NCBI GenBank assembly: GCA_963800055.1
Contig: CAWCZP010000003.1
Coordinates: 218,824-282,823, forward strand
Direction of reading: 5' to 3'
From: an uncultured Acidobacteriota bacterium
GTDB lineage: Bacteria; Acidobacteriota; Blastocatellia; Pyrinomonadales; Pyrinomonadaceae
Length of the DNA: 64,000 nt
Shown here piece by piece: positions 5,344 through 64,000 of this stretch (the stretch's first letter is position 1; every line of letters begins with the position of its first letter). A program made the translations under genes and the position numbers. The notes beneath the pieces were generated by a model. It worked only from the letters and a program-made list of their open reading frames with translations, was not told where the DNA came from and did not search any database.

Positions 5344-6269
5344 CTACTTCTCTTTCTGATACGGTATGCCAAGAGCGCGCGGTGGCCGGGACGATCCAAT
5401 AAAGCCCGCAAGCACTACAATGGTCAAGACGTAAGGAACCATTTGGATGAATTGCACCGGAATATCTTCGCCCGATGGTAACTTAAACACACCCTGCATC
5501 TGAATCGAAACCGCTTCAGTAAACCCAAACAGAAGACACGCGAGCAGCGTCGGCACTGGTTTCCACTTTCCGAAGATCAAAGCCGCGAGCGCGATGAACC
5601 CACGACCCGCAGTCATGTTGCGTGTAAACAACGACGACTGCCCGATCGAAAGATATGCGCCACCAAGTCCCGCCAAAACACCGGCGAGCAACACGCCCGA
5701 GTATCTGTATGCGACTCACGCTGACACCCGCAGCATCGGCAGCTTCAGGATTCTCTCCGACCGATCGCAGTCGCAATCCAAAAGGTGTCTTGTAAAGCAC
5801 GTACCAGATTCCAGCCACGAGCGCGAGTATCACGATAGCAATAAGCCATGGCGACTGCGGCAACAGATGGTCCTTTGGAATTTGCGGAGTCGATCCTGAG
5901 GAGAGAAACAAAGCGCCACCCAAGAAAACCAGGTATGCCCAGCATCAGGATGTTAATTGCCGCCCCACTCACCACCTGATCGGCTTTGAACCTGATGCAG
6001 CTCACTGCGTAAATCGCCGCAATGAAAAGTCCCGCAATCATCCCGGCAAGTAAACCCGCCCACGGACTCGCGGCTCCCATTCCCAATCTCGTGTCTGCTG
6101 CGTACGTAACTGCGGCCGCCGTGAAAGCTCCCGCAAGCATTTTTCCTTCGAGTGCGATGTTGATGACGCCGGATCGCTCCGAGAACAGACCGCCAAGCGC
6201 CGCGAGCACGAGCGGTGTTGCGACGCGAATCGTTGAAGCTATGAGTGAAAGACTGAAGAGATCTCTCAT
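5344..6269 (-). CDS. BMP-type (nucleoside/simple-sugar) ABC transporter permease, NupQ/YufQ-like; two frameshifts
   Basis: Three overlapping ORF pieces (5344-5694, 5516-5923, 5745-6317) together read as one polytopic permease. The ATG at 6269 overlaps the upstream stop (ATGA). Confidence 0.7.
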
Positions 6270-7342
6270 TGGTTTACTCTCAAACGTTGCATCGAGAACC
6301 TTCCTCCCAAAAGCCACTTGAAGAACGCCTCAGCGGCGACGAACAGAATGATGATGCCTTGAAGCACCTGCACGATATCTTTCGTGACGTGCTCTGAAAA
6401 ACCATCGACGTAGATTCCGCCGTGTTGTAGTGCAGCAAACAACAACGCCGCGAGGATCACGCCCACCGGATGATTACGACCGAGCAGCGCGACGGCAATT
6501 CCGGTATAACCATAGTTGTCAGAGAAGCCGTCGTAGTAACGATGCCGATCGCCGAGCACTTCGTTGATGCCGACCATTCCCGCGAGTGCGCCTGAAACTG
6601 CCATCGCCAAAACGATCTGAGTGCGAGTCGAAATACCGCCGTACTCTGCCGCAAACGGATTGCTGCCGGTAGCGCGTATCTCGTAACCCCACTTCGTGCG
6701 CCACAGAAATAGATAGACCAGAAGACAGCAGAGCAGCGCGAGCAGGAATGCAACGTTCAAAGGAATGCGTTCAGGAAAACCGGGAATGAATTTACCGAGA
6801 CGTGCGATGTGTGCGCCTGCGCCGATTTCTGCGGTTTGCAGTATCGGATCGCCTCCAACCCTGTAGTGATACTGCGTGAAGTAACTGACGAGCGCGATCC
6901 CGATGAAGTTCAACATGATCGTGTTGATGACTTCGTGCGATCCAAATCGCGCTTTCAAGACGCCCGGAATCGCTCCCCAGAACGCGCCACTAAATATCGC
7001 CGCGAGGCAGCAGAACGGAATGAGAAGCCAGGGCGATAGATTTGCGAAAGTAATTCCGACCCATGCTGTTGCGAATGCCGCGACGTAGAGTTGACCTTCA
7101 GCACCGATGTTGAATAAGCCGCAACGAAATCCCACGAGGACCGCGAGCCCCGTGAAGATCAGTGGTGTTGCATGAAACAGCGTGTAGCCGATTCCGTCGG
7201 GCCATGAGAGCGCGCTGCCGAGGAGTAAGCGATAAGCGACTAACGGATTGTCGCCGATGAGAATTATCAAAATGCCGCCAACAATAAATGCGGCCAACAC
7301 GGCGATCAGAGGGAACAGAAGCTCACGCGCGAGTTTGTTCAT
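6266..7342 (-). CDS. BMP-type ABC transporter permease, NupP/YufP-like
   Basis: Polytopic membrane ORF. Start placed at the internal ATG (7342) because the 7366 start would lie inside the intercistronic hairpin. Confidence 0.75.
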   Translation of the reverse strand: MNKLARELLFPLIAVLAAFIVGGILIILIGDNPLVAYRLLLGSALSWPDGIGYTLFHATPLIFTGLAVLVGFRCGLFNIGAEGQLYVAAFATAWVGITFANLSPWLLIPFCCLAAIFSGAFWGAIPGVLKARFGSHEVINTIMLNFIGIALVSYFTQYHYRVGGDPILQTAEIGAGAHIARLGKFIPGFPERIPLNVAFLLALLCCLLVYLFLWRTKWGYEIRATGSNPFAAEYGGISTRTQIVLAMAVSGALAGMVGINEVLGDRHRYYDGFSDNYGYTGIAVALLGRNHPVGVILAALLFAALQHGGIYVDGFSEHVTKDIVQVLQGIIILFVAAEAFFKWLLGGRFSMQRLRVNQ

Positions 7343-11395: not shown

Positions 11396-12596
11396 TTAGT
11401 TGCTCTCCATAAGAACAGCGGCCTGAGCGGTCACAGCGAGCCCCTGCCCCACCGCATCGACGCCTTCGCCCGTCTTTGCTTTGACACTCACGCAGCCGGC
11501 GTCGATTCCCAATACTTCGGCGATGTTTTCGCGCATTGAATCGACGTAGGATCTGAGTTTTGGTCTTTCGAGCAAAATTGTCGAGTCAACATTGACTACG
11601 TGGAGACTGCGTTCGCGCGCCAACCACATCACGCGCGAAAGCAATTCAAGACTATTCGCACCACTCCACTGTGGATCTTTATCCGGGAAATGCACTCCCA
11701 TGTCGCCTTCACACAACGCACCGAGAATCGCATCGGCAATCGCATGACTCAAAGCGTCAGCATCCGAATGCCCCTCAGCCCCTCGATCCGAAGCGATATG
11801 CACACCACCGAGCACAAGCTCCCGCCCTTCAACGAGGCGATGAGTGTCAGTGCCGATGCCGATTCGAATCATGATGCGACTTTTGCGTGTCTTTCTTGTG
11901 AAACACTCTTTGTGGCTATCTTCTTTGAATAACGCTTCCGCCACCACGAGATCCTCAGCAGTCGTAATCTTAATATTCCTCGCACTCCCTTCAACAACGC
12001 TCACGCGATGGCCCAGTTGTTCGACGAGCGCGCTTTCGTCAGTCAGCGATGGATCGTTTACATCAGCTCGCTGGTACGCCTCTCTCAACAACTCGTATCG
12101 AAAGCATTGCGGCGTCAAAGCACGACGCAATCCACCGCGATCCAGAGTCTTCACCACCGAGCCATCACTAACCTGCTTGATCGTATCCGTCACGGGCGCC
12201 ACAAGAATCGCCGCGCCATCCGTCCTGCGCAGCCGCAACCGTGTTGCTGATCTCTTCAACAGTGACGAACGGCCGAACACCATCATGCACCGCAACGATC
12301 TCCGCCGTCGCAGATCTAATCGACATCAAACCGCGCTTTACCGACTCAGCTCGCGTCGCTCCTCCCGGAACAACACGCGCGACTTTCCGCAGTCCCATTT
12401 TCCCCGCCATTGAAAGGAAACCCGCAGACTCTTCTGCGGGCAGGACTACTATCACTTCTTGAATACTGTCACACTGCTCGAACACCTTCAGCGTGTGAAA
12501 AATTACGGGCGTTCCTGCGAGTAACAGAAACTGCTTCGGCCGATCGCTCGCCATCCGGGTGCCAGCGCCGGCGGCAGCAATAATCGCGATGTTCAT
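11396..12596 (-). CDS. ispDF: bifunctional MEP cytidylyltransferase / MEcPP synthase (IspDF); one frameshift near 12220
   Basis: IspD part MNIAIIAAAGAGTRM..PKQFL.. and ..AVHDGVRPF..; IspF part MIRIGIGTDTHRL..GHSDADALSHA..DKDP.., in the same frame with no intervening stop. Confidence 0.85.
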
Positions 12597-35441: not shown

Positions 35442-36771
35442 ATGAAAACCGAACTAATCGACGTCTCCTCAACGCGCAAAGAGATCAACATCGAGATCGA
35501 GCCGGCGGAGGTGCGCAGCGCTTTCGATCGCATCAGTGAAAAGTACAGCAAAGGCGTTAGCGTGCCGGGCTTTCGTCCGGGACACGCGCCAACCTCGGTC
35601 GTCCGCGCTCGTTATAAAAGCGAGATCAGGGCCGAGGTGTTGCGTGAGTTACTTCCCGAAGCCGTTAACAGCGCAATCGTCGAACACTCACTCGCCACAG
35701 TGGCCGATCCTGAAGTGGAGTTTGACAATACTCAGGGGGTAAATCCTGCGAGTGAAGAAGCGCTGAAGCTGAAAGTCAAAGTGGAAGTGCTTCCTGAGAT
35801 CCAGCTCGATACATATAAAGGACTCGAAGCAACTCGCCGCAAGCGTCCAATCACTGACGCCGACGTCGAAAAGATCATCGACGGCTTGCGCGACGGTTCT
35901 GCATCGCTACAGCCCGTCGAAGATCGCGCTTCGGAAATCGGCGACACAGTAACAATCAACGCACAGTGGCAACTACGTCGACGAACCCGAAGGGGAAGAA
36001 GTCAAAGTCGATGATGTTGAGGTAGTTCTCGGTGGCCCGGGAGTGATGGAAGAGTTCACTCAGAACCTTACCGGCGTCAAACCAGAAGAGACACGGAGCT
36101 TCACTGTCGAGTATCCCGCTGACTACAACGCGCAAGCTTTAGCCGGTAAGAAAATCTCGTATGTCGCAGAAGTAACGGCCGTTCGCCGCAAAGAGCTGCC
36201 AGAGCTTGACGACGAGTGGGCGAAGAGCCTCGGTGGCGAATTTGATTCGGTTGATGCTCTCAAAGCGAAAGTGCGAGAAGATCTCGAAGCGCGTGCCGCT
36301 GCGGAGTCAGATAGCATGCTTCGCGACGACTTACTCCGTGCGCTCATCGAGGAGAACAAATTCGAGGTTCCTCAAAGCCTCGTTGATCATCAAACGAACC
36401 ACCGTCTTGAAGGTGTCGCGCGCCAGATGATGAGTCGCGGTATCGATCTGCGAAGGCAAGAGCTCGATTGGGAAGGCGCTCGCGAAGAAATCAGGGTGCA
36501 GGCAGAGGGCGATGTGCGAGTTACGATGTTGCTCGAAAAGATTGCCAAAGCCGAGAACATCTCTGTTTCGGATGAAGAGGTTGAAGCGGAGCTCGAGTCG
36601 TTTGCAAATGCTTCACAACAACCAATAGAGCAAGTGCGTGCTGCCTTGACAAAGGAGGGGGGCGACCGTAGCATCGCGCACAGAGTGCGCAATCGTAAGG
36701 CGCTTGATCTTTTGATCGAAAACGCTCGCATTACGGACGCAGAGTGGACGGAAACAAAGGAAGCAGAATAG
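35442..36771 (+). CDS. tig: trigger factor; one frameshift near 35965-35968
   Basis: [19 protein letters not shown].. ..[12 protein letters not shown].. The second frame continues [30 protein letters not shown].. Confidence 0.9.
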
Positions 36772-45643: not shown

Positions 45644-45782
45644 CATTGCCAATTGCCGATTGCCAATTCGGTCATTGCCGATTGCCAATTGCCAATTGCC
45701 AATTCGAGACTCCAAAGGTGACACGGATAATGACATCAAGATATTTTTCTTTAAATTGGCAATTGGCAATTGGCAATCGGCA

Positions 45783-45784
<2 letters not shown>
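45644..45784. repeat. inverted arrays of the heptamer RATTGCC (second locus)
   Basis: About 8.5 copies of (C/A/G)ATTGCC at 45644-45705 and about 4 copies of the complement GGCAATT at 45754-45784. The right array runs into the purA start codon. Confidence 0.85.
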
Positions 45785-47532
<1,748 letters not shown>

Positions 47533-55078: not shown

Positions 55079-56047
55079 TTATTGGCGTTTAATCCACCAG
55101 GACGTATAACGGCCGCCGGAAAGATAGTCGACAATGTAGGACATCGGATCAGTGCTCTCGCGGATCTGCTTGCCCTGTAACTCGATGCGTCCGTCTTTGA
55201 CCACAAAGGGGTACTCACCATACTGTTTGTTGTTTAGCGTGAGTCGAACACTGTAGCGGCCGTCTTCGCGCAACAAATCGCCGGCCTTGAGATAAGCATT
55301 CTGGTCTTCTCCAGTGGGCCGAAAGTACAAATCAGCTTTCAACCACCGAGGTTCAAGACGCAGAGTGCCCGTGTCTGAAGCGAGCACGCGTCCATCACGT
55401 AAGCTGACGAGCTTTAGATCGTAAGGCACTGACGTTTTGTTCTGTTGGCCCACCTTGTCCTGGATCCATGTGGTGAATCGTAAAGACGACTGTGGATCGT
55501 TTCGCTGGTAGAAGATGTTGCCGTACTCGTTCCATGGCCCTTCGACGAAGTAGCGATTACCGGCAGGCTGATATGGATCTTCATTCTTGATTTGGACCAC
55601 CGAAATTGGAAACCGGTAGAATGGTTTGTCTTCAAGAGCAAACTCCAACACGTAATTTCCGGCAGCTAGAGGTTTCACTGCTTCATACCCGCCCACGACT
55701 TTGTAACGGCTCATTTCCCAGAGTCCACTAATGTTCTCGGCGTACCAGACGTAAGTGTTCAGTGCATTGCCGTCCGCGGACTTGACGATCGTCGAGAGCT
55801 TGCCGCCGCCATCCGGATCGTAGGGATAGTTTGACGTGCTTTGTCGCGCCGGAGTTGGAAGGCAGACAGCATACAACCGGCCAACCCCGAGCCGTCCGTC
55901 TGTGTGGCCGATGCGAACCTGGTCCAGCAGGTTCCAGAAACTAATACCGGGTGCGCAGGTTGTCTTCGCAGCCGGCGAGTGTGAATCAGGGGTTTGAAAT
56001 AGCATAAACGCCAAAACCGGAATCAGGGCGATTGAGCGAAGTCGCAT
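55079..56047 (-). CDS. hypothetical secreted protein
   Basis: 322 aa; signal peptide MRLRSIALIPVLAFMLF; no family recognised. Confidence 0.45.
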   Translation of the reverse strand: MRLRSIALIPVLAFMLFQTPDSHSPAAKTTCAPGISFWNLLDQVRIGHTDGRLGVGRLYAVCLPTPARQSTSNYPYDPDGGGKLSTIVKSADGNALNTYVWYAENISGLWEMSRYKVVGGYEAVKPLAAGNYVLEFALEDKPFYRFPISVVQIKNEDPYQPAGNRYFVEGPWNEYGNIFYQRNDPQSSLRFTTWIQDKVGQQNKTSVPYDLKLVSLRDGRVLASDTGTLRLEPRWLKADLYFRPTGEDQNAYLKAGDLLREDGRYSVRLTLNNKQYGEYPFVVKDGRIELQGKQIRESTDPMSYIVDYLSGGRYTSWWIKRQ

Positions 56048-56209
56048 CTTTTACCTCAGGGCTGGAATTTTTCGCGCGCATTATTCACTAACACCGAGTG
56101 GCGAGCAAGCTTTCTCGTGACACCTCTCTGCGTAACCTCTGCGCCCTCTGCTTATGCAGAGAGGCTTGTCAAAATAGGACCAACGCACGATACTTACAGA
56201 GTGAATCTC

Positions 56210-56550
56210 ATGACTACAGCGACACTCTATTCTTTGTTATTTGCCGGCGTGGGATTGTTGTTTGTTGGCTTGAGCATTCCGCTCATCCGGGAACGTGTGC
56301 CACCAAACTCAACTTATGGCTTTCGCACTGCGAAGAGTCTCTCCGACCCAAAGATTTGGTATGAGATCAATCGGATCTCAGGACTCGATCTGTTAATAGC
56401 GGGTGTGCTGATAACTCTCGGATCCGTGGCGATGCTGTTCCTCGGACAACATCTCCCACTCTCTCAAGTAGTTTGCCTCTCTTTCTGCTGATGGTCTTCA
56501 CACTCTCCGGCGCCACGTTGCACGGGTACATCGTGCTGAGGAAACTGTAG
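56210..56550 (+). CDS. SdpI/YhfL-family membrane protein; one frameshift near 56480
   Basis: ..LSIPLIRERVPPNSTYGFRTAKSLSDPKIWYEINR.. The last TM helix (..LPLFLLMVFTLSGATLHGYIVLRKL) is in another frame. Confidence 0.55.
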
Positions 56551-56779
56551 ACTCCTTATCAAATGGTTCGGGTCGTTTGTCCTACAAGTAAAGACAGAAT
56601 CAATTATCACTGAGAGGAAGTAGGTTTCAATACAATGCGGAGACTGCACAGTCAGACAGCGAAAAGTATCAACTCGGAGGGCGATTCGAATGGTGACTTG
56701 TGCGACAGGAAACAGTTCGGATAGGTGTCACTTCAGGCCTTATCTAGATCAACCGGTTAGGAGGCAGTACACTCTCTAG

Positions 56780-57178
56780 ATGCCTAATCTGGAATTGGCG
56801 GCCTGCACGCCGCACCCTATCCATGCTGACGGTTTCAATCCAAGCGCTGTCCTGCCCTGCGGACTAACAACAGATCAAGGACACAACCCCGAAGACACTT
56901 GGTTGATGGTATTTGTTTTCGATAGCAATAGACCAGTTGATGCTGCTAAACAGGTTTCGCCTAAACCTTTTCATTTTGTTATGGTACTGGGGGCACAACT
57001 AACCAAGGCAGACTGGTTGTATGCCGGGAGATCGTCGACAAGTCGGCGAACGATCACGGCAAGCGTCACTACTTCAGGTTACGATAAGATGAGGGCGAAT
57101 TGGATTTATAAAGCGCCAGACATGACTATAGCGGAAACGGAAGCTGTTCTTGAAGACCCTCTTTCGGAAGACGAATAG
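56780..57178 (+). CDS. hypothetical protein
   Basis: 132-aa ORF in a lower-GC patch; its 3' end overlaps the methyltransferase 3' end by 53 nt. Coding status uncertain. Confidence 0.25.
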   Translation: MPNLELAACTPHPIHADGFNPSAVLPCGLTTDQGHNPEDTWLMVFVFDSNRPVDAAKQVSPKPFHFVMVLGAQLTKADWLYAGRSSTSRRTITASVTTSGYDKMRANWIYKAPDMTIAETEAVLEDPLSEDE

Positions 57179-58091
57179 CGGAAAGTTTGGGGATCGCTTT
57201 GCAACTTACTTCGTAATAGTCAGAATACCTTTCAACGCCTACGGACGAAACGCCGACCGCTTCGGCAGCCGCGATCGTTGATCCCGCACCCATGAAAGGA
57301 TCGGCCACAATACCCACACCTAGCGGCAAGGCAGCGTGAACAATTTTGCGCATGAATGACTGCGGCTTCAACGTCGGATGGTTTGCTATTGCTTTTTCCC
57401 GTTGCGGCGTACGCTCACTAATGACCACGTCACTGAATGGCTTGTCATCAGGAGTGCGCCGCAAACCACCGGTCTGGTATTCTCGCAAACAATCGCTAAC
57501 CTTCATTCCCAGGGGCAAAGGTTTGCGCAACAAGCCCCAAGGTTCATAACAGGCTCGTGGCATACTGGACACGTCAGGGAATTCGGTTTCCGCATTCTTA
57601 GGACGATCCCCGCCGCGAAGTGTACGAACAAGGCGAATGAGTTCGCCGCGAAATTCCAAACCACCCCCGATCAATGCTTGAAACACTAACTGCGACAAGA
57701 ACGCATTAGTAGCAATGAAGACATGGGCGCCGGGGCGTAATGCGTGTGAAGCCACCTTAGCCCATTCAGTGAAAAAGATGCTGATTTGATCGCGTTCCTT
57801 GGTGTTTAGCGCCGTGAAGCGCGGTAAGGGGGCGCGGGTGTGGCCATCAAACGATGGCGGAATGCGCCAGATTCCGCCATTGCCATTGTTGCGCTTTTCG
57901 ATCTGGTCAAAGTGGTATTCCTTAACACCATAGGGCGGATCAGTGACAATCGCGTGAAGGCTGTTTTCAGGAATGCGACTTAACCACTCCAGACAATCGC
58001 CATGCAGGATCAAAGAACGTCCAATCACTTGATGCGTGTAATCAAGGGCTAGGTTGGTGGCTGTTTTTGCTAGGATCGCTTTACTCACCAT
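57126..58091 (-). CDS. site-specific DNA methyltransferase, beta class (N6-adenine or N4-cytosine)
   Basis: ..LILHGDCLEWL..SLHAIVTDPPYGV.. (motif IV near the N-terminus) and ..ADPFMGAGSTIAAAE.. (motif I near the C-terminus). Confidence 0.8.
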   Translation of the reverse strand: MVSKAILAKTATNLALDYTHQVIGRSLILHGDCLEWLSRIPENSLHAIVTDPPYGVKEYHFDQIEKRNNGNGGIWRIPPSFDGHTRAPLPRFTALNTKERDQISIFFTEWAKVASHALRPGAHVFIATNAFLSQLVFQALIGGGLEFRGELIRLVRTLRGGDRPKNAETEFPDVSSMPRACYEPWGLLRKPLPLGMKVSDCLREYQTGGLRRTPDDKPFSDVVISERTPQREKAIANHPTLKPQSFMRKIVHAALPLGVGIVADPFMGAGSTIAAAEAVGVSSVGVERYSDYYEVSCKAIPKLSAIRLPKEGLQEQLPFPL

Positions 58092-58548
58092 TTGCTTTCA
58101 CTTTATAACAAAGAAATCTACATAGACGCCATTTTAAACAAGACTTTCGCCGAAGATATGTCGCTCGTCAATGAGGAATTTATCAATTTGAAATCAAAGT
58201 TTTATCAACATCGCGATCTGTTCATTTTCTTCTTCCTTGCGAAGAGAGAGATTCGGCCTCACCCTCCGTCAACGACACATTTGCTCGCCGCAAGTGCTTT
58301 AGTTAATTCTTGCGGACCACCGTTCACAATTCTTAGTTGTTCAAGGGTACCAGGTTTACGTGTTGCGCAAGAATCTGCGCTATGCCCAGCTTTAGACTTT
58401 GAAAACGTCTCCAATCTTTCGGAACCTTCCGTTCGCGGCTGATTGAGATCGAATCGCATTGGTGTCTTTTTAATAGAATGGGTGATTGCGAGTGTGGTAT
58501 AGTGCGCGCAATCCACCAAACAAAGAAGCGGGCCGACTTGTGCGCAAA

Positions 58549-60472
58549 GTCGCGGTAGAGATGTCGATTGCTCGACACCCCCCGCACAGACCCGTGCGAG
58601 CGCTGCTCACGCACACGGTTCCTACCTTGGATATTTGGCGTCGAAGCGCGCAGTGGGATAGGGGTGGAGAACACAAATCTCAGGAAGCAAATGACCCAGA
58701 CGCTCCATGAAGCGTTCCCAGTTCCAGCGACTACGCTGACTGCGCCGTCGAAGCTGGTCCAGCCACATACGTAGCACCTCCTGCCGAAACGCTTCCAGCC
58801 GCGCCTGATTATCCGGAATCGCATGGTATTGGAAATACCCTCGCACCACGGACTGTAGCCATTTCACCGTCTTCACGTGCGACTCATGCCGACGCACTTT
58901 CAGTTGCGCTCTAATTTCCTTTAGCTTGGCTGTCATGCGCTGGCGCTTAGTCTGACGCCGGATGGTGAAGCGGCCCGCGTTACGTGTTGTCCCACAGATG
59001 TGGGTGAAACCTAAAAAGTCAAAGGTCTCTGGCTTTCCTAGCCCAAGTCTTTTCCGTCGTTCAGTAGCATAGCGTCCGAATTCAATCAGACGTGTCTTCT
59101 CCGGGTGCAGCTCCAGACCGAATTTGGCCAGCCGTTCCCGTAACTGCTCCAGAAACTGCTCAGCTTCTTCCCGATGCTGGAACCCTAGCACGGCGTCGTC
59201 GGCATAGCGACAGACGATTACATCGCCCTTCGCCTTCCGCCTGCGCCACTGGTGCACCCAGAGATCGAGAACGTGATGTAGATAGAGGTTAGCGAGGACT
59301 GGTGAGATCACCGATCCTTGCGGAGTCCCTTCCACCGTCTCGAACCACCGGCCTTTGTTCCATCACGCCTGCTTTCAACCATTTCTGGATGAGGCGGATG
59401 ATTCGTTTGTCTCCTACCCGATGCTCGACGAACTTATTCATCCATTCATGTCGAACTTTATCGAAAAATGAGCGGATGTCGAGATCTAAAATCCAGTTCA
59501 CTTTCTTGCGTGTGATTCCCACCCATAAAGCGTCCAGCGCATCGTGTTGACTGCGCCTTGGCCGGAACCCGTATGAGAAACCCAGAAAGTCCTCTTCCCA
59601 TATCTGATTGAGAACTCTACCCACCGCGTGCTGAACGACTTTGTCTTCCAGCGCCGCGATCCCCAATGGTCGTTGTCGGCCATCAGGTTTGGGTATCCAG
59701 GTTCTTAGTGACGGTAGCGCTCGATAAGCTCCACGATGAAGGCGACCATGAAGGTTTGCTATTCGCTCTTCCAACCCGCTTCCATATTTTTGCCACGTAA
59801 CGCCGTCTACTCCGGGAGCAGCTCCACGCTTGAGTGCGAAGAAACTGTCACGAAGCAGATCCACTGTCACGTGATGCAGCAGAGCCGTGAACCGTAACTT
59901 CTTATCCTTCCTTGCTGCTTCGCGCACATGGGTCAACTTGCTTGACCAGCTTCCCCGTTTCTGCGTCCGGTACTGGTTGAGTTGATCCATGTTCTCCTTG
60001 GTCAGCGGCCTTCCCTCCACTGCCTCCGCTGGCGGTTCCCCGCTTTTGTTCGGCTGCTTCGCAGGTACTATGCCGCTGTACGACTCCCCGTCACCGTGCA
60101 TGTGGGTCTTATCGCTTATCGCTTTCTCCCACCGGACCACTACCGTTCGTATCAGTGGTCGACAACGGGGTCTCTCGGTTCTCGCGCGTGGAGTTTCTAT
60201 GCATGCATGGGGTCTCTGACTCCGCAGGGCTGCGACGCACTCGCGCTAGCGCACGCCGCCTTGTTGCCTTCCAGCCTTTGTGACGCCGTCGGCTTCTCCC
60301 CTGATGATTGGGCCATTTCGGAGCTCTATACCCAGCCTACATATACCTCTGTCGAACGCTCGATTGCGGTCTTGCGGCCGCCCCCGCATGACTCGAGGCC
60401 AGGATGGTTCGCTACTCCTTATCCTGTATGACTCTTTCATTCACGACTCCACGCCGGTTTATCCCGACGCAC
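58549..60472 (-). mobile_element. bacterial group II intron (about 1.92 kb) with RT/maturase ORF and no endonuclease domain
   Basis: The 5' end on the minus strand is GTGCG (60472-60468). A domain V-like GAACCGTGTGCG..GCACGGGTC follows directly after the ORF stop, then a 3-nt linker. Next is a 34-nt GCAA-tetraloop hairpin with a bulged A 7 nt before a terminal ..GAC (domain VI-like), ending near 58549. Confidence 0.8.
58622..60140 (-). CDS. group II intron reverse transcriptase/maturase; one frameshift in the run at 59354-59356
   Basis: ..IPKPDGRQRPLGIAALEDKVVQ.., ..YGFRPRRSQHDAL.., ..LDLDIRSFFD.., ..EGTPQGSVISPVLANLYL.., ..VCRYADDAVLGF.. (YADD), and the X/maturase region. It ends without an HNH domain. 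Confidence 0.9.
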
Positions 60473-60769
60473 CACAAAGCCGGCCCTAGACCATCAACCT
60501 TCAGTAGAAAGGATGAAGATCATGGCCAGTCATAGTAGCGCAACCGCGCGCGAACCTCACGTAAACACGTCAACTCAAAACAACACACCTATCAACAATG
60601 CGCTCAAGCGACGCGCTTGGCTGCTGTCGGCGCGATAGGTCAAAGCGTTGGAGTGAACACGCGACAAAGATCGTGCCTTGAGAGAACGACTGAAACCGCA
60701 TTGCCTCATACAGGGCGACGTATGAGGCGGGGGCATCACTGCGCAAACGGCAAGAGGGGTGGTGCCCCG

Positions 60770-61108
60770 TTAAAAAGTTGAGGTAGATAAATGGTCGCCA
60801 ATCTCAGCAATAATAAAGGGCTTCACACCTTCGCGTCCGGTGAGACTTAGCCAGACTGCGCCGCCTTCGCGTTCTACCTCTAAACCAAAGTCAAAGAATG
60901 GACAGCATAGACGCTCAAGCGAAATGAATTCCGCAACCTGTAGTAATACGTCGGACTGATTTGGAAGTTGAAATGAGTAACCATTCGCTACTTCGCGGAC
61001 GCTTTCAACCGAGCGAAACAGTTTTTCGATTGTCGCTAAGTGTGCCTCTCGCTGATCAGGCCGGATGGCGTTCATATCACAAGCAAAAGGTGATTCTTTT
61101 TCTGTCAT
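60770..61108 (-). CDS. hypothetical protein with a vicinal Cys pair (..ERLCCPFF..)
   Basis: 112 aa; the start overlaps the ynfA stop (ATGA); Cys at ..FACDMN.. and ..LCCPFF... Confidence 0.5.
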
Positions 61109-61431
61109 GAGTTTCTAGGCCAATACATGATGATAAATACTCCCGCAAGTGCGACCGCGCCGCCAATTAGATCAAACCTATCGGGAGAGATCTTATCCAC
61201 TCGCCAGCCCCACAGGACAGAAAGAACTATAAACACGCCGCCATATGCGGCGTACACACGCCCAAAGCTGGCTGGTTGCAGCGTAGGTATGATTCCATAA
61301 AGAATCAGTATCGCGCCACCAATGAAAGCGAACCAAATCGGTTTGCCCTCACGCAGCCACAACCACATAAGATAGCCACCGCCGATCTCACAGAGACCAG
61401 CAACAACAAAATAGATTATGGATTTGACCAT
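61105..61431 (-). CDS. ynfA: YnfA family (UPF0060) small membrane protein
   Basis: 108 aa; ..[23 protein letters not shown]....[32 protein letters not shown]...PD..D.IGA...L.G... Confidence 0.8.
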
Positions 61432-61494
61432 GAACTAATTGTAGGGCTATTCGCGCGCTCACAACATCTAAGGAACGGAATGACCTGCGCGCAG

Positions 61495-61597
61495 TTCTCT
61501 GCGGCCCTCTGCGTATCTCCGCGTTCTCCGCGTTTAATGGCCCTTTCAACGCAGAGGTCGCAGAGATACGCAGAGATACGCAGAGGGCCGCAGAGAA
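61495..61597. repeat. CTCTGCG-word hairpin in the ynfA / merR divergent intergenic region
   Basis: TTCTCTGCGGCCCTCTGCGTATCTCCGCGTTCTCCGCG ... ACGCAGAGGTCGCAGAGATACGCAGAGATACGCAGAGGGCCGCAGAGAA. Confidence 0.8.
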
Positions 61598-61747
61598 TAA
61601 CCGCGTGCCCAAATCGACTCTTTGCGCAAAGCCCTACCGAACAACTGGCTGTGGAAGTTCTTCTCAGCGATCTCCTGGAGAACCGATTTGGCTTGACTCT
61701 CGTCCCGGCTCTAGGGTTTATCCTTTTTCTACCCTTGGAACATTGCC

Positions 61748-62191
61748 ATGAACGAAGGTTTACAGATCGGCGAGGTTGCGAAGCGGGCGGGTGTAAGCAT
61801 CGACACCTTGCGTTACTACGAGAAGGTGAAGCTGCTGCCACGTGCGGGCCGTTCGACGGGTGGTTTTCGACTCTTTGCTGCCGAACACGTCGAGCGCGTC
61901 CGGTTCATTAAGCAGGCTCAGGAGTTGGGATTCTCGCTTGACGAGATTAGAGACTTGCTGGCGACGGGTGGCACAGAAGAATGTCGCAAGGTTCGCGATC
62001 TACTTAAACGCAAAATCGCTGAAATGGATGAAAGGCTGAAGTCGATGAAAGAATTTCGTCGAGTGTTAGCGAGTCATCTTTCAGCTTGCGAGAGCGAACT
62101 AAAGAAGCATCGCGATTCAACCTGCTGTCCTGTTTTGCCTTTGAACGACAAGGTGCAGGCTTCGAAGCGTAGAAGGAGCGAAGATGACTAG
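61748..62191 (+). CDS. MerR family heavy-metal-responsive transcriptional regulator
   Basis: ..LQIGEVAKRAGVSIDTLRYYEK..LLP...RS.GGFRLF....V.RV.FIK.AQ.LGFSL.EI..LL... By my count Cys is at positions 79, 114 and 126/127. Confidence 0.85.
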   Translation: MNEGLQIGEVAKRAGVSIDTLRYYEKVKLLPRAGRSTGGFRLFAAEHVERVRFIKQAQELGFSLDEIRDLLATGGTEECRKVRDLLKRKIAEMDERLKSMKEFRRVLASHLSACESELKKHRDSTCCPVLPLNDKVQASKRRRSEDD

Positions 62192-62787
62192 TCGAGGGCT
62201 TGTGGTTATTACGGTTGTAGGAGTGCTGCTGGGTTTCTTAGTCGAATCTGGTGCTCAGCCTTCCTACGATTCAAGCCCTTTGGCAAAAGAAGGATATAGC
62301 GCTGATCTAAACGAGCTTAAGAAGAGATTCAATGCCGACAAGAAGAAAGTTCGATTGCTGATGCTCTTGTCTCCGACTTGAGGCGGTTGTCTTCGGGGGG
62401 CTTCCGAAGTTCAGCGAGACGTAATGGACCAGATCAAAAACGACAAGCTGCGTTCTTATTCTGTTTGGGTGCCGATTTTAATGAGCGACGCAGAACGAGC
62501 CGTGCCGAACGCAGCAACGCGACTACCCGACAAGCGCGTCATCGCATTTCTGGGACGGCAAAGGAGAATTGGTTGAGGCATATAAAACGATCCTGCCAAC
62601 AAAGAATGCCGAGACCGGCCAATACGTAAAAGCCTGGGACGTTTACCTCGTATTCGCGCCTGGCGTCGAATGGAAAGATCAACCACCTAAGCCAACTGTT
62701 TGGATGCATCAACTTTACTCCGTCGATCCGAAGAACAGGTTTGACAGCAAGGGCCTGGCGACCGAAGTGCAAAGGCTACTCAAATAA
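62184..62787 (+). CDS. membrane-anchored thioredoxin-fold protein, candidate selenoprotein (TGA at 62379-62381 read as Sec); one frameshift at 62547-62549
   Basis: AGGAG RBS; TM anchor LVVITVVGVLLGFLV; ..KKKVRLLMLLSPT-TGA-GGCLRGASEVQRDVM.. The same frame stays open after the TGA. The C-terminal part is paralogous to 63446-64000. Confidence 0.65.
62386..62415 (+). promoter_or_regulatory. SECIS-like hairpin downstream of TGA 62379-62381
   Basis: Stem CUUCGG (62391-62396) / CCGAAG (62404-62409) with loop GGGGCUU beginning 16 nt after the UGA. Possible lower stem GUUG (62386-62389) / CAGC (62412-62415) across a small internal loop. Confidence 0.55.
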
Positions 62788-62789
62788 CT

Positions 62790-63080
62790 ATGGATTGCTG
62801 TGGCGTCGACAATATCGAGAACTCGCGAATTGATGATTTGCCGATCACGGTGGAACTTAAAGCGACTACCAATCCAATTCCGCTTTGTTACTGTTTCGGC
62901 TTTGACGAGAATTATATTCGGGAGGAGATTGCGCAGACTGGAACCACCACTGTGCCGCAACGGATTTCTCAGCTCATTCGTGAGGGCTTGTGCGCGTGTG
63001 ATGTGCTCAACCCTTCTGGAACGTGCTGCTTTGGTGCGGTAAACAGGACTGCAACAAGAATAAAGAAAGAAGTCGGTTGA
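62790..63080 (+). CDS. Cys-rich putative metal/Fe-S-binding protein (BFD- or CopZ-zinc-finger-like)
   Basis: 96 aa with 8 Cys in the pairs MDCC, CYC, CAC and TCC (..PLCYCFGF....I.EEI..TG...V...I...I..G.CACDV.NPSGTCC..). Confidence 0.5.
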   Translation: MDCCGVDNIENSRIDDLPITVELKATTNPIPLCYCFGFDENYIREEIAQTGTTTVPQRISQLIREGLCACDVLNPSGTCCFGAVNRTATRIKKEVG

Positions 63081-63087
63081 GCAAGAT

Positions 63088-63441
63088 ATGAAGATCTCAC
63101 GGAGCGCAGTGGCTAGTGGTGTGTCGGTCTTTTCGGCGTTCTTTTCAGTTCTGCCGGTTAGTTGCTGCGTGTTTCCGGTTGCTATTTCGTTTCTCGGTGC
63201 GTCAGGTCTCGCCTTCGCCTCAGCATTAATGCCCTATCGCCCCTACTTCATCGTGCTGACATTCATTTCGTTAGCAACCGCTTTCTATTTCACCTATCGT
63301 CCGCAACGAGATTGTGCGCCGAATGCGGCCTGCGCAATACCGAAAGTTCGAAAAGTGCAAGTGATCGCTTTCTGGGTGGCGACTGCTTTCGTTCTGATCC
63401 TACTGGTGTTCCCTTACCTGATCCCATTCTTGCCGCTTTAG
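63088..63441 (+). CDS. merT: mercuric-ion transport protein MerT homologue
   Basis: 117 aa. TM1 has a vicinal Cys pair (..SVLPVSCCVFPVAISFLGASG..), then ..LMPYRPYFIVLTF.., a loop Cys pair (..RDCAPNAACAIPKVR..) and ..IAFWVATAFVLILLVFPYLIPF.. These are collinear with Tn501/Tn21 MerT as I remember it. Confidence 0.8.
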   Translation: MKISRSAVASGVSVFSAFFSVLPVSCCVFPVAISFLGASGLAFASALMPYRPYFIVLTFISLATAFYFTYRPQRDCAPNAACAIPKVRKVQVIAFWVATAFVLILLVFPYLIPFLPL

Positions 63442-63445
63442 AACG

Positions 63446-64000
63446 ATGAAAAAGTTTCTAATAATCACTCTGGCAATTGCGGTGATGTTCGTGGGTCTTC
63501 TGGCATTATATCTGTACGCAGGAACCACCGTTCCGACTGGACAACAACCTCTCACCCGGCTGAATGACTCTAATTTTTCGTCACTCAAAGATGCCTTTAA
63601 CGAGTCAGCTAACTCGGTCCGCGTTATCGTAATGCTTTCTCCGACTTGACCAGTGTGTTTGCGGGGGGCCTCCGCATTTCAAAAATTATTGGAGGAACAA
63701 CACGGAAGCAGTGTGCGGGTTTTTGTAATTTGGGAACCGGTACTACCATCGGACTTGTTTGCTCCTTCGACTTCGACGCTGAGCCGAATATCTGACGCAA
63801 GAGTTTCTCAATACTGGGACAAGCCACGTGTTGTTTCTCGCTCCATGGGCGAGACGGACGATGACTCGATCGTTTGGGATATCGTCGCCGTTTATCAACC
63901 AGGAAAACTTTGGGAACAGACACCGCCTGAGCCTACTTATTCTGGCGGGCCCGTGGTCGAGGTTATTGACGAAACAAGAAACGCGATCAAACGTGAACTG
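63446..64000 (+). CDS. membrane-anchored thioredoxin-fold protein, second candidate selenoprotein (TGA at 63647-63649 read as Sec); 3' end outside the window
   Basis: TM anchor FLIITLAIAVMFVGLLALYLY; ..ANSVRVIVMLSPT-TGA-PVCLRGASAFQKLL.. The frame stays open from 63650 to the window end (117 codons) and aligns with the paralogue (..VFVIWEPVLPSD.. / ..YSVWVPILMSD..). Confidence 0.65.
63660..63676 (+). promoter_or_regulatory. SECIS-like hairpin downstream of TGA 63647-63649
   Basis: Stem UGCGG (63660-63664) / CCGCA (63672-63676) with loop GGGGCCU beginning 16 nt after the UGA, the same spacing as at the first locus. Confidence 0.5.

Follow-up and report, generated by a model that had tools for sequence, protein, structure and literature searches.

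Background

Thioredoxin-fold proteins in which selenocysteine (Sec, U) takes the place of the first cysteine of a CxxC motif (UxxC) are the commonest type of predicted bacterial selenoprotein (PMC13188914; bioRxiv 10.1101/2022.07.06.499078), and selenoprotein versions of MerT and of CopZ-like 2Fe-2S proteins have already been catalogued (PMC13188914; bioRxiv 10.1101/2022.07.06.499078; NCBIfam NF045683, NF045877). Here we describe two paralogous genes, gene 1 and gene 2, in a 64,000-nucleotide stretch of DNA (hereafter the window) from an uncultured Acidobacteriota bacterium of the family Pyrinomonadaceae (contig CAWCZP010000003.1). Both genes contain an in-frame TGA, and most probably both encode anchored thioredoxin-fold selenoproteins of a MerR/MerT operon, the UGA being read as Sec and a frameshift in gene 1 being artefactual.

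The closest described proteins are the predicted thioredoxin-fold UxxC selenoproteins (TlpA-like cd02966, Redoxin PF08534, DsbA-like; PMC13188914), which are alike in fold and in carrying Sec for the first Cys. Their Cys homologues are likewise more abundant, their selenocysteine insertion sequence (SECIS) lies in the open reading frame (ORF) just past the UGA, and all of them are in silico predictions (PMC13188914). Unlike these, genes 1 and 2 match no Pfam Redoxin, AhpC-TSA or Thioredoxin model and no NCBIfam model, possess a sequence signature of their own, and occur as two Sec paralogues in a MerR/MerT/CopZ-like operon of soil Acidobacteriota. Similarity to TlpA, ResA, CcmG and the DsbE/DsbF proteins of Mycobacterium tuberculosis, the best structural matches, lies in the fold, in a probable N-terminal anchor or lipoprotein signal and in the position of the CxxC at the start of helix 1; the differences are an identity of only 8-19%, Sec in place of Cys, a context devoid of cytochrome c or copper-site maturation genes, and an operon in which no gene for a CcdA/DsbD electron donor was seen.

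A further counterpart is MerP, which is exported, has a pair of the C-x-x-C type and is encoded beside merT under a MerR-type regulator. Since the operon in the window has no MerP, the family of genes 1 and 2 could fill its place; the fold, however, is that of thioredoxin and not the ferredoxin-like fold of the heavy-metal-associated (HMA) domain of MerP, and many loci have the family alongside, or fused to, an HMA/MerP-like domain. Finally, the Sec variants NF045683 and NF045877, together with SaoT of the SAO system, provide a precedent for Sec in heavy-metal transport or handling and for a small thioredoxin-like partner. The MerT and CopZ-like proteins of the window are Cys versions of the NF045683 and NF045877 families, and Sec sits in a third, different family; SaoT, unlike genes 1 and 2, is a cytoplasmic-type protein of ~85 amino acids (aa) from anaerobic Firmicutes (bioRxiv 10.1101/2022.07.06.499078). 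Our literature search returned nothing that links Pyrinomonadaceae to selenocysteine or a TlpA-like protein to mer operons, and nothing specific on the family. The family matches no catalogued selenoprotein entry that we found, while its kind, the thioredoxin-fold UxxC protein, is already known.

Results and discussion

An in-frame TGA at the active site of two paralogous genes

Gene 1 occupies positions 62184-62787 of the forward strand and, after repair of a frameshift, encodes a predicted anchored or exported thioredoxin-fold (TlpA/ResA-like) selenoprotein of 200 aa with the active site SPT-U-G-G-C. Its in-frame TGA (62379-62381, +), the predicted Sec codon, closes the ORF 62184-62381 immediately 3' of ...VRLLMLLSPT; the residues ahead of it read ...KKKVRLLMLLSPT, and beyond it the same frame continues as GGCLRGASEVQRDVMDQIK... 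/ GGCLRGASEVQRDVMDQIKNDKLRSYSVWVPIL... and stays open until a stop at 62574-62576. The original prediction, made from the letters of the DNA, had placed this TGA at the first Cys of a CxxC motif (T-U-G-G-C) and had described the frame as continuing past it, and both statements hold, the former also by alignment with Cys homologues. Gene 2 (63446-64000, +) is a paralogous predicted selenoprotein with the active site SPT-U-P-V-C. It reads ...VRVIVMLSPT-TGA(63647-63649)-PVCLRGASAFQ..., with the TGA (+) again as the predicted Sec codon, and its frame is open to the window end, where the gene runs off with ~7 codons missing by comparison with the orthologous locus L005. Both genes thus have the motif LSPT-TGA-x-x-C in common, with coding continuing in frame. 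If the TGA is translated, the products of genes 1 and 2 can be aligned across 165 positions (30% identity, E = 1e-25) with no break at the TGA.

TGA is the ordinary stop of 9 of the 32 well-supported genes in the window. The genetic code is therefore standard, and reassignment of TGA was rejected as an explanation.

TGA alternates with cysteine in a constrained coding sequence

When the repaired product of gene 1, Cys standing for U, was compared with 5.8 billion proteins, 40 matches were obtained. Most of them are 120-aa ORFs equal to the part after the TGA, from Met81 to the end, which indicates that the frameshift is absent in relatives and that gene callers cut these genes at the TGA. Full-length matches carry LSPT-C-x-x-C, some with an N-terminal HMA domain, and the DNA of two relative loci showed the same in-frame TGA within an unbroken frame of 200-206 codons. 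Pattern scans then yielded 13 loci from species-representative genomes and 70 metagenome loci, which together with three further contigs made up a set of 76 distinct family genes from public metagenome-assembled genomes (MAGs) and metagenomes. The codon at the first active-site position is TGA in 38 of these 76 and TGT or TGC in the other 38, and in the alignment the first CxxC cysteine of the Cys forms falls on the TGA of gene 1. At least 110 open codons follow the TGA in 36 of the 38 TGA forms; the two others are gene 1 of the window and L018, the latter with a short run of G. Of the 13 species-level MAG loci, 12 contain TGA forms, as do many metagenome contigs, and the genome loci come almost all from Acidobacteriota or Pyrinomonadaceae MAGs. 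The recurrence of the same TGA in 38 distinct genes from independent assemblies is far beyond chance.

Selection on both sides of the TGA was estimated by Nei-Gojobori comparison of genes 1 and 2 with their three closest orthologues. The ratio of nonsynonymous to synonymous substitution rates (dN/dS) is 0.05-0.14 downstream of the TGA and 0.12-0.36 upstream, at synonymous divergences (dS) of at least 0.5. Where it could be estimated, dS is ~0.5-1.6, so that silent sites are well diverged; one upstream comparison was saturated. These values show purifying selection on both flanks, and the protein-coding constraint that had been postulated downstream of the TGA is evident. Moreover, the 14 codons from the TGA to the first ATG, the second Cys included, are kept in frame, and the first possible in-frame start past the TGA differs between genes 1 and 2. 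The original prediction had named as evidence against itself a set of homologues that end at the TGA, with a downstream part that has its own start; instead, the codons across this interval are kept and no start is conserved.

A hairpin specific to the TGA forms

In both genes a hairpin follows the TGA, within the codons L-R-G-A-S-E/A. The predicted SECIS hairpin of gene 1, CUUCGGG(GGGCU)UCCGAAG (62391-62409, +), begins 9 nucleotides (nt) past the TGA within L-R-G-A-S-E, and that of gene 2, UGCGGGG(GGC)CUCCGCA (63660-63676, +; -9.7 kcal/mol), begins 10 nt past it. A motif of this kind (CUUCGG-GGGGCYU-CCGAAG type) was found in 35 of the 38 TGA forms, whereas all 38 Cys forms lack it. Codon usage points the same way: Sec forms with the peptide C(L/V)RG(A/S)S use CGG (31/31), GGG (31/31) and TCC (30/31), whereas Cys forms with the same peptide use varied codons (CGT/CGC/CGA/CGG, GGG/GGA/GGT/GGC and TCC/AGC). 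For example, L016 (TGA) and L045 (TGT) both encode CAVRGASELR, but L016 folds into GUUCGG..CCGAAC at -7.5 kcal/mol and L045 reaches only -3.6. Natural Cys forms of this sort, with an identical peptide but other codons, are an unusually clean control for a SECIS in a coding region. The folding energy of the hairpin ranges from -7.4 to -9.7 kcal/mol among Sec forms and from -2.7 to -6.1 among Cys forms.

In an alignment of 31 sequences, 95.8% of the hairpin cells are paired, as against 29-71% in slid registers. Compensatory two-sided changes occur at two pairs: six sequences have U-A changed to G-C, a change also seen in gene 2 relative to gene 1, and one has C-G changed to G-C. Four gene 1 orthologues are identical across 32 nt from the TGA onward, though dS is ~0.5-1.2 elsewhere. 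In the published model of the bacterial SECIS (bSECIS), the loop has 3-9 nt with a G in its first two positions, the stem has 4-16 bp, the UGA-to-loop distance is 16-37 nt and the minimum free energy (MFE) is -7.5 kcal/mol or lower (PMC13188914). The gene 2 hairpin lies within all these limits (stem 7 bp, loop GGC, spacing 17 nt, -9.7 kcal/mol); that of gene 1 has a stem of 7 bp, the loop GGGCU and a spacing of 16 nt, and reaches -13 kcal/mol with the lower stem included. The hairpin of the two genes essentially matches the model.

With a UGA aligned to Cys, coding constraint on both sides and a hairpin confined to TGA forms, the reading of the codon as Sec is supported. The hairpin, on which the original prediction is silent, is an independent line of evidence for it. 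On these comparative grounds translation must pass the UGA at the first active-site position, which is followed by a conserved, codon-constrained hairpin. The UGA of both genes would be decoded as Sec, the signal being a bacterial-type SECIS hairpin within the coding sequence, 9-10 nt 3' of the UGA. By analogy with the established bacterial pathway, SelB carrying Sec-tRNA(Sec) presumably binds this hairpin and inserts Sec, and the outcome would be full-length proteins of roughly 190-200 aa. The incorporation of selenium itself is a prediction.

A distant paralogue was observed at L014 (position 4144; a MAG of high GC content labelled uncultured Clostridia), where LVSPT-TGA-PECVAGARR adjoins a Cys-form HMA fusion. 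Its hairpin, GCCCGC-CGUGU-GUGGGC, differs and lies ~21 nt past the TGA; the gene may be a Sec form in its own right, with another type of SECIS.

The frameshift in gene 1

Deletion of one base 5' of 62550 gives gene 1 a product of 200 aa that ends at the TAA 62785-62787. The frameshift and the repaired product ending at 62787 stand as originally described, but the extra base had been sought in the T run 62547-62549, and a site slightly further upstream fits better. A MAFFT alignment with L005, L023 and L024, the three closest orthologues, puts a one-base insertion at 62539-62545 (+), probably at C62540 (the C in gcgtCatcgca), any position within 62539-62544 being possible. Removal of C62540 gives RVSHFWDG, identical to L005, and removal of T62542 gives RVTHFWDG, as in L023, whereas removal of a T from 62547-62549 gives RVIAFWDG and loses the His common to all three orthologues.

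The gene 1 orthologues are intact, unlike the copy in the window, and several other genes of the window are broken in the same manner. In purA (45646-47116, +), Pfam model positions 1-106 and 110-416 lie in different frames; ispDF (11396-12596, -) is split into IspD 2-122 and then IspD 115-220 plus YgbB; and the Trigger_N and Trigger_C domains of trigger factor (35442-36771, +) are in different frames. The reverse transcriptase ORF of a group II intron is frameshift-split as well (59289-60140 and 58622-59335). Three broken housekeeping genes in 64 kb indicate indel errors in the assembly, and such errors make the gene 1 frameshift most likely an artefact rather than the mark of a pseudogene; we regard an assembly or sequencing artefact as highly probable. 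The split genes also call for caution with any finding in the window that is based on a frameshift. Programmed frameshifting in gene 1 was considered and rejected, since orthologues are unshifted and other window genes are also split.

A divergent thioredoxin-fold family

Neither of the two proteins belongs to a Pfam or NCBIfam family that we could find, all NF-numbered selenoprotein models included, and gene 1 has no NCBIfam match. The best Pfam matches were below threshold (Redoxin, E = 0.18; AhpC-TSA, 0.22; DUF6436, 0.29), so that membership of these sequence families is not indicated, and a sequence-profile search of the Protein Data Bank (PDB) gave E-values of 0.26 or worse (~0.3), with matches at the CxxC motif only. 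Among 1.84 billion cluster representatives, profile searching identified 2,672 family members at E <= 1e-3, 334 of them at <= 1e-30. Their common signature is LSPT-U/C-xx-C, WDVYL and WMHQL. Many have N-terminal extensions, and several of those tested contain HMA domains.

The AlphaFold2 model of a Cys homologue (P0020) has a mean confidence score (pLDDT) of 84, and >90 across the domain. It shows an N-terminal helix (13-37), an anchor or signal, followed by a thioredoxin topology with a strand at 75-81 and the CxxC (85-88) at the start of a helix (86-103), which is the layout of strand, U-x-x-C and helix that had been read from the translation of gene 1. Foldseek comparison of this model with the PDB gave a probability of 1.0 and target TM scores of 0.6-0.66, the top matches being 1lu4, 3ios, 2f9s, 1st9 and 1kng. 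The matched proteins are thiol-disulfide oxidoreductases that act outside the cytoplasm (M. tuberculosis DsbE/DsbF, ResA, CcmG, TlpA-like proteins and pneumococcal Etrx). The family of genes 1 and 2 shares the thioredoxin fold yet forms a separate sequence family. A hydrophobic N-terminal helix is present in genes 1 and 2, the Sec-form orthologue L016 has a lipobox (LLLWSG-C), i.e. a lipoprotein signal, and fusions of a signal peptide with HMA occur among homologues. The model supports the placement of genes 1 and 2 in a divergent, exported or anchored TlpA/ResA/DsbE-like thioredoxin-fold family with the active site SPT-C/U-x-x-C.

Operon and genomic context

The operon consists, in this order, of a MerR-like regulator, gene 1, a CopZ-N-terminal-like protein, MerT and gene 2. 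The same gene order occurs in L005, L006, L024, L026, L018, L093, L094 and L095, and MerR, CopZ-like and MerT neighbours are found beside both Sec and Cys forms. A candidate MerR-type promoter/operator lies at 61693-61724 (+), with a -35 element TTGACT (61693-61698), a spacer of 19-20 nt with a partial dyad, and a -10 element TATCCT (61719-61724). A scan for standard spacers of 16-18 nt missed this promoter; a long spacer is typical of the MerR family. The block CTTGACTCTnGnCnnGGCTCTAGGGTTTATnCT is conserved across five orthologous loci, and in orthologues the dyad is near-perfect (GACTCT..AGAGTC; in L006, GACTCTGG..CCAGAGTC). We take this type of operator to resemble those of ZntR, PbrR and CadR more than that of the Tn501 mer operon, and this likeness suggests that the inducing metal may not be mercury alone.

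The first gene (61748-62191, +) encodes a MerR-family metal-sensing regulator of 147 aa (Pfam MerR_1, MerR-DNA-bind and MerR) with Cys79, Cys113, Cys125 and Cys126. Its best NCBIfam match is MerR TIGR02051 (110 bits; cut-off 150.85), followed by ZntR and CadR/PbrR with scores nearly as high. Between gene 1 and merT lies a gene for a CopZ-N-terminal-like putative Fe-S/metal-binding protein of 96 aa (62790-63080, +; NCBIfam NF047645 CopZ_Nterm_CC, E = 9.5e-18), whose L005 orthologue, of 163 aa, reaches 123 bits (cut-off 100). The window copy is without the ~67-aa N-terminal Cys-rich (zf_CopZ) segment of the orthologues of 163-181 aa in L005 (compared at L005 4046-4537), L001 and L094; this short gene is either a deletion variant or another assembly problem. 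The MerT-family transporter (63088-63441, +; 117 aa) scores 70.1 bits with Pfam MerT (gathering threshold 32.9) and has a CC pair in the first transmembrane helix and a C..C pair in a loop; with the NCBIfam equivalog model it reaches 75.9 bits, under the cut-off of 150. Two sister loci are complete mer operons. In L045 (Cys form), MerA scores 513.9 bits with TIGR02053 (cut-off 454.45) and has a C-terminal CC pair, and L016 (Sec form) contains a MerTP fusion and a MerA-like gene that is cut by the contig end, its C-terminus lying beyond the contig.

The island around the operon contains YnfA, ars genes, a CDF transporter, CopC, DNA methylases and a group II intron. The intron (58622-60435, -), domains D1-D4 of which match Rfam RF02005 at 60210-60435 (143.8 bits), adjoins a DNA methylase gene (57126-58091), which fits a mobile island beside the metal operon. 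Just upstream of the operon a YnfA/UPF0060 membrane protein is encoded (61105-61431, -), and beside it an unannotated 112-aa ORF with a CCPFF motif (60770-61108, -). In L094 and L095, too, ynfA adjoins the operon, and L094 has an unannotated 111-aa ORF next to it; YnfA and the 112-aa ORF may belong to the same metal island. The region between ynfA and merR holds an imperfect palindrome of ~100 nt (61495-61524 versus 61568-61597, 97% complementary), which is made of 10-nt units of the CGCAGAG type and is nested in a second inverted repeat (61441-61454 / 61624-61637). The whole structure (61441-61637) looks like an insertion of the repetitive extragenic palindrome (REP) or miniature inverted-repeat transposable element (MITE) kind, or a large terminator. 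Directly 3' of gene 2, L005 has a 493-aa ORF (5523-7004) with no Pfam or NCBIfam match, and its counterpart would fall just past the window end.

Alternative explanations

Several observations weigh against the interpretation of genes 1 and 2 as selenoproteins of a MerR/MerT operon. ARAGORN found no tRNA-Sec in the window and 37 loci, and no sel gene was seen in the 64-kb window or the fetched loci, two further loci having been covered with 20 kb of context. Folded as single sequences, the hairpins do not differ significantly from shuffled sequence (z = +0.55 and -0.76), the gene 1 hairpin alone reaches -7.4 kcal/mol, 0.1 short of the -7.5 of the bSECIS model and thus borderline, and L020, a Cys form, retains the greater part of the hairpin. 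Relatedness among the sequences inflates the shuffle control for covariation, and most double changes go back to one or two events. Generic MFE over 39 nt fails to separate Sec from Cys forms, because the Cys forms come from more GC-rich genomes; comparisons at the codon and motif level were used in its place. As to the operon, the regulator stays below the cut-offs for MerR, ZntR and CadR, so that its score assigns it to none of them, and neither MerA nor MerP is encoded in the operon of the window or downstream in the closest orthologue L005. A MerA-type active-site motif is absent from the window and from the downstream part of L005; the metal is hence uncertain. Rfam returned only the group II intron and no SECIS family for 56000-64000, which is uninformative, as bacterial SECIS are poorly modelled there.

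The UGA might be read through without Sec, by a near-cognate or suppressor tRNA that is helped by the hairpin and inserts a standard amino acid. Indeed, the data show read-through and a conserved hairpin, not the chemical identity of the residue, and no Sec machinery was found in the window or the fetched loci. Yet the Cys that gives way to UGA is the redox-active or metal-binding one of a CxxC, the classical Cys/Sec pair, and the active site would be lost with Trp or Arg in its place. In spacing, in the size of the loop and in its G content the hairpin essentially agrees with the bSECIS model, and the phylum contains known Sec users (PMC12013277, PMC13582414). We consider such read-through very improbable. 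Even less credit is due to the idea that the TGA is a true stop, with the two halves being separate products or decayed remnants, or that it is a miscalled TGT or TGC. Gene callers do split the halves in all public records (e.g. into 65-69 aa and 120-123 aa), but the TGA recurs in 38 distinct sequences from independent assemblies, which rules out a sequencing error, and both halves are under purifying selection. The stretch from the TGA to the first ATG, with the second Cys, is kept in frame without a conserved start, and neither half alone can form a thioredoxin fold. This explanation is effectively refuted already.

It is also conceivable, if unlikely, that the selenoprotein family is genuine but that gene 1 of the window is a recently inactivated pseudogene, gene 2 carrying the function. 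The frameshift is present in the sequence and lies outside a homopolymer run, where sequencing errors are commonest; other public relatives (L018, L089, P0022, P0035) are damaged too; and the surroundings of the locus, with a group II intron and DNA methylases, look like a mobile island. On the other hand, the same kind of split affects at least four further genes of the 64 kb, three of them conserved housekeeping genes, which would be very unlikely in a living cell, and gene 1 has no lesion besides the one extra base, with dN/dS at 0.05-0.14. We therefore retain the interpretation of both genes as selenoproteins, with an artefactual frameshift in gene 1.

Proposed function in metal handling

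From the fold, the topology, the fusions and the neighbours, we propose that the U-x-x-C proteins would work with MerT at the outer side of the membrane, as its selenol/thiol partner. They could be TlpA-like reductants that maintain in reduced form the cysteines by which MerT and, where there are any, MerP-like HMA domains bind metal, a role in which a selenol would be favoured because its pKa is low and it resists irreversible oxidation. The reduction by TlpA of the metal-binding cysteines in ScoI and CoxB is a plausible functional analogy for the cysteines of MerT and HMA domains. Alternatively, the proteins could serve directly as a selenolate-thiolate ligand, capturing Hg(II) or another thiophilic metal and handing it over to MerT. 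The frequent co-occurrence and fusion with HMA suggest that the family is a partner of MerP-like domains and not a simple replacement for them; in operons of the type found in the window, which have no HMA, it may do both jobs. Because of the associations with MerT, MerA and MerTP, the metal is probably Hg(II).

The more specific idea, less likely than not, is that the U-x-x-C is a direct extracytoplasmic ligand of Hg(II) or another soft metal: a selenolate-thiolate chelate would take up the metal outside the membrane and relay it first to MerT, at its CC pair, and from there to the CopZ-like Fe-S protein in the cytoplasm. If true, aerobic soil Acidobacteriota would possess a selenium-dependent module for metal uptake or sequestration that works without MerP and, in this type of operon, without MerA, and it would be the first mer-type system with selenocysteine as the primary metal-binding residue.

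Conclusions

The finding is solid and useful for annotation and for the biology of mercury and selenium, and would not surprise a specialist on selenoproteins. The family comprises ~2,700 clusters at 50% identity with no Pfam or NCBIfam model, and all public records examined show its Sec branch as a pair of "hypothetical proteins", an annotation that a family model including a rule for Sec would correct in Acidobacteriota MAGs. An exported thioredoxin-fold selenoprotein, predicted in two paralogues per operon, is added to metal operons of the MerR/MerT type, and the emerging link between selenocysteine and heavy metals would thereby extend to abundant aerobic soil bacteria. These operons offer a concrete system in which Sec as a metal ligand can be tested against Sec as an oxidation-resistant reductant in the periplasm.

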